Shown here: one piece after another, positions 11,890 through 12,657 of the stretch
Layout: the number at the start of each line of letters is the position of its first letter
Numbering within the stretch: the first letter of the stretch is position 1
NCBI GenBank assembly: GCA_964016885.1
Contig: OZ024751.1
Coordinates: 6,820,001 to 6,884,000, forward strand
Length of the DNA stretch: 64,000 nucleotides
From: Eledone cirrhosa
Taxonomy: Eukaryota
Reading direction: 5' to 3'
The notes under the pieces: generated by a model
Database searches by the model: none
What the model saw: the letters and a program-made list of their open reading frames with translations, nothing else
Told to the model about the DNA's origin: nothing
Program-made: the position numbers and the translations under genes

Positions 11890-12657
11890 GAAAGACGTAA
11901 AATAAGAACATTTTAAAAATTAAAAATTAACTTACTTACTAAAATTTTCACTCCAACTAATTAGTTTCTGTAAGGGGATAAATATAGTTACGTAACGTAA
12001 CTATAGAGAATTCCTTACGTCATCAGGGAGTCTATTCTCAGCTAAGTTCCCAGGCAATGCGCGGACACTAGGAACCCATATAAAAATAATAATTCAGTGG
12101 ATGGAATAAAGCTAGCGGGGACTAAATTCAAAAGCACTGAAAAAATTCACTACCTCCTTGGTCAGTGACAGATTCTAAAAAATCAATCACGTGACACTGA
12201 GGTTAATCAGTGAGGAGTGGGGTGGTATTATGACAAGAGCCTACTACTACCATGAATCACAGCAGTAAATTTTGGCAAGTTTTACTCAACAAATAATTTG
12301 GATATAAATATAGAGGATTAGTATATCTACCAACATATGTATACAGATGTATACCCATGCTAGCAAATATATATGTTATGTCTTAGCACCTTTGTGGTTC
12401 TATGCAGGGGGATGCAGAACAATTATATGAAAGACGTAAAACAAGAAGATTTAAAAAATTAAAAATTAACTTACTTGGAGTGGAAATTTTAGTAAGTAAG
12501 TTAATTTTAAATTTTAAAAATTTTCTTATTTTACGTCTTTCATATAATTGTTCTGCATCCCCCTGCATAGAACCACAAAGGTACTAAGCCATAACATATA
12601 TATTTGCTAGCATGGGTATACATCTGTATACATATGTTGGTAGATATACTAATCCTC
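11890..12657 (-). mobile_element. family B element with foldback end
   Basis: Full unit 11890-12430, partial repeat to 12476, then an inverted copy 12477-12657 pairing with 12312-12476. Confidence 0.85.
11951..12030 (-). ncRNA. type I hammerhead ribozyme (family B)
   Basis: CTCC-CTGATGA-C-GTAAGG..TATAGTTACG/CGTAACTATA..CCTTAC-A-GAAA-CTAATTAGTT-GGAG. Confidence 0.85.

Follow-up and report, generated by a model that had tools for sequence, protein, structure and literature searches.

The question raised by this locus is whether a genomic hairpin can record the cleavage of an RNA by its own ribozyme. In the window, by which we mean the whole 64,000-nt stretch of Eledone cirrhosa contig OZ024751.1 that was analyzed (positions 6,820,001 to 6,884,000), two copies of a repeat face each other head to head, and one of them starts at the nucleotide that would follow a predicted hammerhead cut. 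The original prediction took this hairpin for a foldback made on a template RNA with a self-cleaved 5' end, and hence for a genomic fossil of ribozyme activity in vivo.

The hairpin and its repeat family

Unit positions are counted from the predicted cut, in the coordinates of one natural unit. The right arm reads GGAGTGGAAATTTTAGTAAG from 12477, and this base is +1 because the intact copy on the minus strand (core CTGATGA from 12026) has a GUU ending at 11955 that is followed by GGAGTG. The proposed start of the arm is thus confirmed, as is the suspected microhomology: the TT in front of it can be assigned to the left-arm end or to ribozyme positions -2/-1, which leaves the junction ambiguous between -2 and +1 (called here as left +18, right -2, overlap 2). 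The further claim that the arm holds no ribozyme sequence from upstream of the cut agrees with +1 at 12477, but the same TT can also be read as ribozyme sequence. The arms are 95.8% complementary over 165 nt (12312–12476 versus 12494–12658). The feature does not begin at 12312, as had been supposed, since the left arm continues to 11885, through a whole unit and a second predicted ribozyme (Table 1). An artefact of assembly or amplification is unlikely, since the arms differ by 4% and their fixed 3' ends are not the same. The junction letters recur identically at a second locus (G000:C1:85886850). Contigs assembled from four short-read runs contained the family, and none of them crossed the locus junction. 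The junctions of both other family copies in the window are far from the cut site.

Table 1. Features of the hairpin locus and the other insertions of the family in the window
Feature	Position	Strand	Description
Left arm	11885–12476	-	592 nt, starting (5') at unit position +18 (12476) and spanning one complete unit whose predicted ribozyme is intact
Left-arm 3' end			Short priming site, about +62, in (TA)n tract
(TA)n tract at left-arm 3' end	11872–11889		Putative target
Predicted type I hammerhead	11950–12031	-	Stem I ACTCC/GGAGT; core CTGATGA 12026–12020; long stem II; GAAA; palindromic stem III; predicted cut after GUU at 11955
TT at junction	12475–12476		Common to left-arm end and ribozyme positions -2/-1
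Right arm	12477–12658	+	About 182 nt, from +1 to the long priming site at about +182
Unpaired spacer of right arm	12477–12493		17 nt
(CT)31 then (TA)27	12655–12769	+	3' of right arm
Separate family insertion	10731–11622	-	853-nt arm with two ribozyme copies, head to head with a 38-nt inverted stub; junction -230/+77, off the cut site
Third, more diverged family insertion	40963–41778	-	774-nt arm and inverted stub; junction -201/-222, off the cut site

The repeat (family B) is non-coding, about 530 nt long, and has one predicted hammerhead per unit. In 32 full cut-to-cut units, whose selection for a +1 anchor favours that anchor, the length is 522–551 nt, the mean identity is 87% and the core is kept. 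The AT content is 55–83% per 40-nt block of the unit and GC is below 50%. The genome, 3.0 Gb in size, contains 4,402 exact matches to one 3' end of the family together with the adjoining (TA)n, which is a lower bound on the number of insertions.

The motif has the core CUGANGA, the GAAA, the UH and stems I–III of a hammerhead, with the core numbered by the hammerhead scheme; its stem I is 5 bp and open. When 23 copies were compared, 95% of cells were paired and compensatory changes were found in 8 of 22 pairs, all of them in stem II, stems I and III being invariant or nearly so. This level of covariation was reached by 0 of 500 shuffles, and slid controls had 30–49% pairing. Related sequences can beat such shuffles, and therefore the covariation supports the fold, not activity; self-cleavage is predicted. 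Rfam gave no hammerhead match at the gathering score or up to an E value of 5, which may be due to the long stem II, and its miRNA matches, which did not reach the threshold, reflect the hairpin. For the monomer, the fold of minimum energy is a structure other than the hammerhead; motifs with a palindromic stem III are described as working in dimers in the available text of PMC4209133.

As to its class, family B has the short non-coding tandem units, the type I hammerhead in each unit and the GC below 50% of a non-LTR retrozyme. The size range of 150–450 bp given for retrozymes in the accessible part of PMC7229834, which is descriptive rather than strict, does not include units of 522–551 nt. 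No frame with both reverse transcriptase (RT) and GIY-YIG, as expected of an autonomous Penelope-like element, lies within family B, and two overlapping frames near 41.6–42.0 kb and 41.9–42.4 kb had no match in Pfam. Family B appears to work like a Penelope-mobilised retrozyme and is not an autonomous element. The genome does hold Penelope-type frames that combine RT and GIY-YIG (L314:1775-5062, L316:2188-4719 and L319:3013-4665). Among 46 GIY-YIG loci, a family B repeat was tied to the RT frame in none, and family B sequence was nearby in two. At L316 two tandem hammerhead-like motifs, 459 nt apart, lie downstream of the frame.

Paired arms and their 3' ends

An unselected sample was drawn with two anchors from loci in the first 180 Mb of contig C1 and comprises 90 inversion junctions and 236 5' ends; in 22 of the 90 a 3' end was untyped, and two non-inversion ends of L169 were dropped because the reference was too short. 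The 68 typed junctions each pair an arm that ends at about +62 with a partner that ends at about +182, never like with like. All 68 also carry the Penelope-type signature, an inverted copy that is truncated at its 5' end and a tail at just one of the two ends. With the present locus included, (TA)n is found at the end of 68 of 69 short arms, and (TA)n or (CT)n at the end of 67 of 69 long arms. A (CT)n run follows the +182 arm in 32 of 69 and the +62 arm in none (0/69), and such runs possibly come from reiterative, telomerase-like synthesis at priming. The +182 end itself finishes in CTCT, and (CT)n is found here at 12655–12716.

The arm pairs are nested in 46 of 69 cases, the window locus among them, and either type of arm can be the longer one. 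Because the other 23 pairs are not nested, self-copying is ruled out as the general cause, and the term foldback in the original prediction is wrong as a general model. Over 63 pairs the median identity of an arm is 96% to its own partner versus 86% to other loci; the partner is the closest relative, ahead of every other locus, in only 30 of the 63, and conversion between arms could raise the identity within a pair. We infer that two cDNAs were primed on opposite strands of the target, from probably one RNA. The one-of-each pairing together with the non-nested arms points to twin priming. In the twin priming of L1, a single RNA is primed from each of the two target strands, and an inversion arises when the two cDNAs are joined through a few bases of microhomology. 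The L1 arms are not known to overlap and the second primer site is variable, whereas the sites of family B are fixed and its arms overlap to form palindromes.

Arm ends around the predicted cut

The original prediction expected the 5' junctions of the family to peak at the cleavage nucleotide and held that a uniform spread would speak against it. The unselected sample has no such excess. Stops between -3 and +3 number only two among the 209 typed arms (1.5 per 1,000 nt versus 2.6 overall), with one more stop, at L097, probably belonging there on inspection, and 5' ends are scattered along the whole unit, so a single junction at the cut site is not beyond chance. The first cut site was passed by 178 of 178 arms and the second by 42 of 44; since most arms pass the cut sites, most templates were presumably uncut or circular. 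On the second pass, 25 stops fall at +4 to +45 versus 5.3 expected, evenly spread across +5 to +42 and following an AU-rich stretch. The stop rate is also raised over stem II (4.3–4.7 per 1,000 nt at -31 to -90). Strand displacement on a monomer circle was rejected for the second-lap stops, as both arm types stop at +4 to +45 and not at their own lap closure. Trimming decay from +1 is not supported as the sole source of this zone, given its even stops that track the AU-rich stretch, and trimmed cut ends may be one source among others.

A targeted search gave 208 matches, of which 100 were listed and 90 rows taken, and 76 junctions were left after 15 of 91 rows had been dropped (an intact mutated ribozyme, or chance). 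Among the matches listed, 17 ends fall at +1 to -2 versus 25 in the ten neighbouring positions (P 0.009, post hoc), while +7/+8 holds 25, -8 holds 8 with AATT microhomology, and -2 holds 5. Clean single breaks genome-wide number nine at +1, six at +3 and one at -3; +1 exceeds -3 (P 0.02), and its difference from +3 is not significant (P 0.17). These single-end data weakly support a peak at the cut site. At L251, L255, L219, L230 and L259, short pieces from +1 are repeated or followed by a switch, which suggests template jumps at the cut site.

The junctions in which both arms come close to the cut are more telling. A search for pairs with both arms reaching +4 or beyond found 43 loci and the reversed-pattern control four; six of the 43 were dropped (three chance-like, three likely duplicates), and positions in the remaining 37 were read by hand. 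The further arm end is at +1 in 11, at -1 in 13, at -2 in 7 and beyond these in 6, that is, exactly at +1, -1 or -2 in 31 of 37. Both arms end within +1 to -2 in 15 of 37, both within +2 to +4 in none, and both within -3 to -5 in none (P 2e-6 versus uniform cells); independent arms would predict 0.2–2.9 double ends within +1 to -2. Counted singly, +1 is the commonest arm end in this set (24/74). There are four blunt CACTCC/GGAGTG joins without microhomology, and nine loci are perfect hairpins with one central base between two +1 ends. Upstream control windows of like width gave 6 double ends past -3 (all on the stem III palindrome), 9 past -14, 3 at -73 and none at -107; at an equal rate, scaled for anchor conservation and survival, about 21 would be expected at -73 and about 13 at -107. 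The AU-rich window directly downstream has 152 double ends, four times more, from a search with 304 rows of which 100 were among the matches listed. Double ends thus pile up locally at the predicted cut, where the peak breaks off sharply on its upstream side, and next to it lies the larger AU-rich hot zone. The cut-site class amounts to about 1% of insertions (37 versus at least 4,402 arm ends, a rough figure because the anchors differ).

The +1/-1/-2 class is most likely a genomic record of cut RNA, with the cleavage itself predicted from the motif. The simplest cause would be a shared RNA end at +1, the letters at -1 and -2 coming from non-templated A. Among non-templated bases, A is preferred. 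For R2, the accessible text of PMC3774820 describes extra bases added at run-off. The proposed fossil is in this way retained for a class of the family, with its position at the cut nucleotide, its sharp upstream edge and its blunt joins, but it concerns only a small share of insertions, the unselected rate is not raised, a hot zone lies at +4 to +45, and the TT of the present locus fits uncut RNA with microhomology equally well.

For the present junction, derivation from ribozyme-cut RNA has about an even chance, because TT joins are expected from both cut and uncut templates. In junctions of the same type (partner at +5 to +19; n = 43), 25 fall at +1 to -2, 10 at +2 to +4, and 5 at -3 to -5 with none at -3; this tally was read by hand after 2 of 45 rows had been dropped as duplicates, and its gap limit undercounts the -8 class. 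The set includes 13 TT joins at -2, one of them identical to the window junction. Somewhat short of an even chance is the alternative that the RNA was uncut or circular, the right-arm cDNA having run two bases past the cut and annealed by AA/TT; the AU-rich hot zone would then explain why the junction lies so near the cut site. The TT common to both arms fits this, as do overlaps of 1–3 nt in 34 of 90 junctions, the microhomology sites -8 and +7, which are as hot or hotter (among the matches listed), and the more than 95% of arms that read through. The empty -3 position beside the 25 of 43 at +1 to -2 argues against it, however, as does the finding that both arms of the locus end 17 nt or less from the cut, and the blunt +1/+1 joins are left unexplained.

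For the cluster as a whole, the main rival is a stall of the RT at a folded, uncut ribozyme (at the stem III base, 10 bp in a dimer), which we think unlikely. It would account for -1 as the most frequent furthest end (13/37), for nine double ends near the base of stem II and for the raised stop rate over that stem, yet +1 is the commonest single arm end, the blunt +1/+1 joins and the G/C-centred joins lack the -1 base, and stem II, although stronger, yields a quarter as many double ends. A true foldback is more doubtful still. Here one cDNA would form a hairpin and be copied back, an endonuclease cut setting the second 3' end (self-priming is proposed in the available text of PMC3846280). Palindromes are hot spots and two thirds of the pairs (46/69) are nested, although near-symmetric pairs are necessarily so; against this stand the non-nested pairs, which exclude it as a general model, the occurrence of either type as the longer arm, and blunt +1/+1 joins that offer no self-complementarity for priming. 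Joining through the complementarity of the ribozyme's own stem I hardly deserves credence: a few loci do pair +1 with about -78 (L230, L259), and L109 has a 6-nt overlap with an internal CACTCC, but this route applies neither to the window locus (partner at +18) nor to the +1/+1 class.

We therefore return to priming at two sites and consider it probable that a hammerhead repeat was inserted here twice, head to head, to give the hairpin. A Penelope-type RT, supplied in trans, would have primed both strands of the (TA)n target, with two fixed sites of one RNA (+62 and +182) as start points, and the two cDNA ends would then have been joined. Most templates of the family would have been uncut or circular and a minority ribozyme-cut, the present locus being evenly poised between them. 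If it belongs to the minority, one RNA would have started at +1, the +182 primer would have copied to the end of that RNA, the +62 primer of the next unit would have copied round to +18, and the ends would have joined via AA/TT.

Relation to known elements

The comparisons with published systems refer to those parts of the cited works that were available as text; figures or supplements may hold maps of twin priming or junctions. Like the metazoan non-LTR retrozymes (PMC7229834; bioRxiv 10.64898/2026.07.22.740005), for which mobilisation by Penelope-like elements has been proposed, family B is made up of tandem units that are non-coding and low in GC, each carry a type I hammerhead and occur in thousands of copies. 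Unlike them, its unit is above the 150–450 bp range, and it is known here from DNA alone. In the available text of both works we found no head-to-head insertions like those of family B, in which the 3' ends are fixed at two sites and some junctions lie at the cut.

With endonuclease-positive Penelope-like elements, in particular the inverted pLTR (PMC8557442, PMC3846280, PMC11167929, PMC4209133), family B shares partial tandems, an inverted 5'-truncated copy, an extension at one end, (TA)n targets, a type I hammerhead with palindromic stem III and two RT start sites downstream of the cut. The inverted copy, the one-sided tail and the microsatellite target are known features of these elements (PMC8557442, PMC3846280), and the text of PMC11167929 describes a Penelope-type protein that starts reverse transcription at two internal sites and extends each of the target strands. 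Family B differs in being without an open reading frame and in its extension of about 120 nt versus 30–40. The strict one-of-each pairing was counted in family B, and in what is available of the anole study no sign of cut RNA in vivo was seen. According to the accessible text of PMC11167929, insertion in vitro did not require cleavage, and RNA-seq gave no reads that ended at the cut.

The closest precedent for the junctions is R2 with its HDV-like ribozyme (PMC3774820), where genomic 5' junctions track the self-cleavage site and non-templated bases and microhomology also occur. Such a junction is what a full-length R2 insertion normally forms with its target DNA, whereas in family B the ribozyme is a hammerhead, the join is between two arms, and about 1% of insertions are concerned. 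Junctions that record ribozyme cleavage are established for R2; in the accessible portions of the open-access literature we found no such report for hammerhead or Penelope-type elements.

How Penelope-like elements make tandem and inverted insertions, and what role the hammerhead has, are stated as open questions in the available text of PMC8557442 and PMC11167929. Family B offers thousands of natural events with countable predictions, namely two fixed sites, one per strand, mostly read-through, and a small class at the cut nucleotide, so that both questions become testable by a full junction map and the existing in vitro assay. A broader reading, which in our estimate could equally turn out right or wrong, is that the Penelope-type inverted copy and one-sided tail reflect twin priming on a single RNA with two fixed sites, that blunt +1/+1 hairpins record a hammerhead-cut germline template, and that the zone from +4 to +45 consists partly of trimmed cut ends. 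If so, the share of cut templates would rise well above 1%, and the cut-RNA reading would run against the in vitro work and the RNA-seq data, in which no role for cleavage was seen.

Several other features were noted in the window. Hammerhead-like motifs of unrelated repeat families lie at 28050–28080, 31825–31870, 31326–31395, 40272–40343 and 53443–53477 (minus strand), and the motif at 53443 recurs near GIY-YIG loci L293 and L314. The elements at 33316–36044 and 53650–56242 enclose 1.3–1.5 kb between inverted ends that measure about 720 and 530 nt, and the two frames tested had no Pfam match. A palindrome at 60893–61459, about 566 nt in all and 99% complementary, has (TA)n at its centre. A PIF1-like helicase fragment at 20299–20769 (plus strand, E 9e-34) is perhaps from a decayed Helitron.
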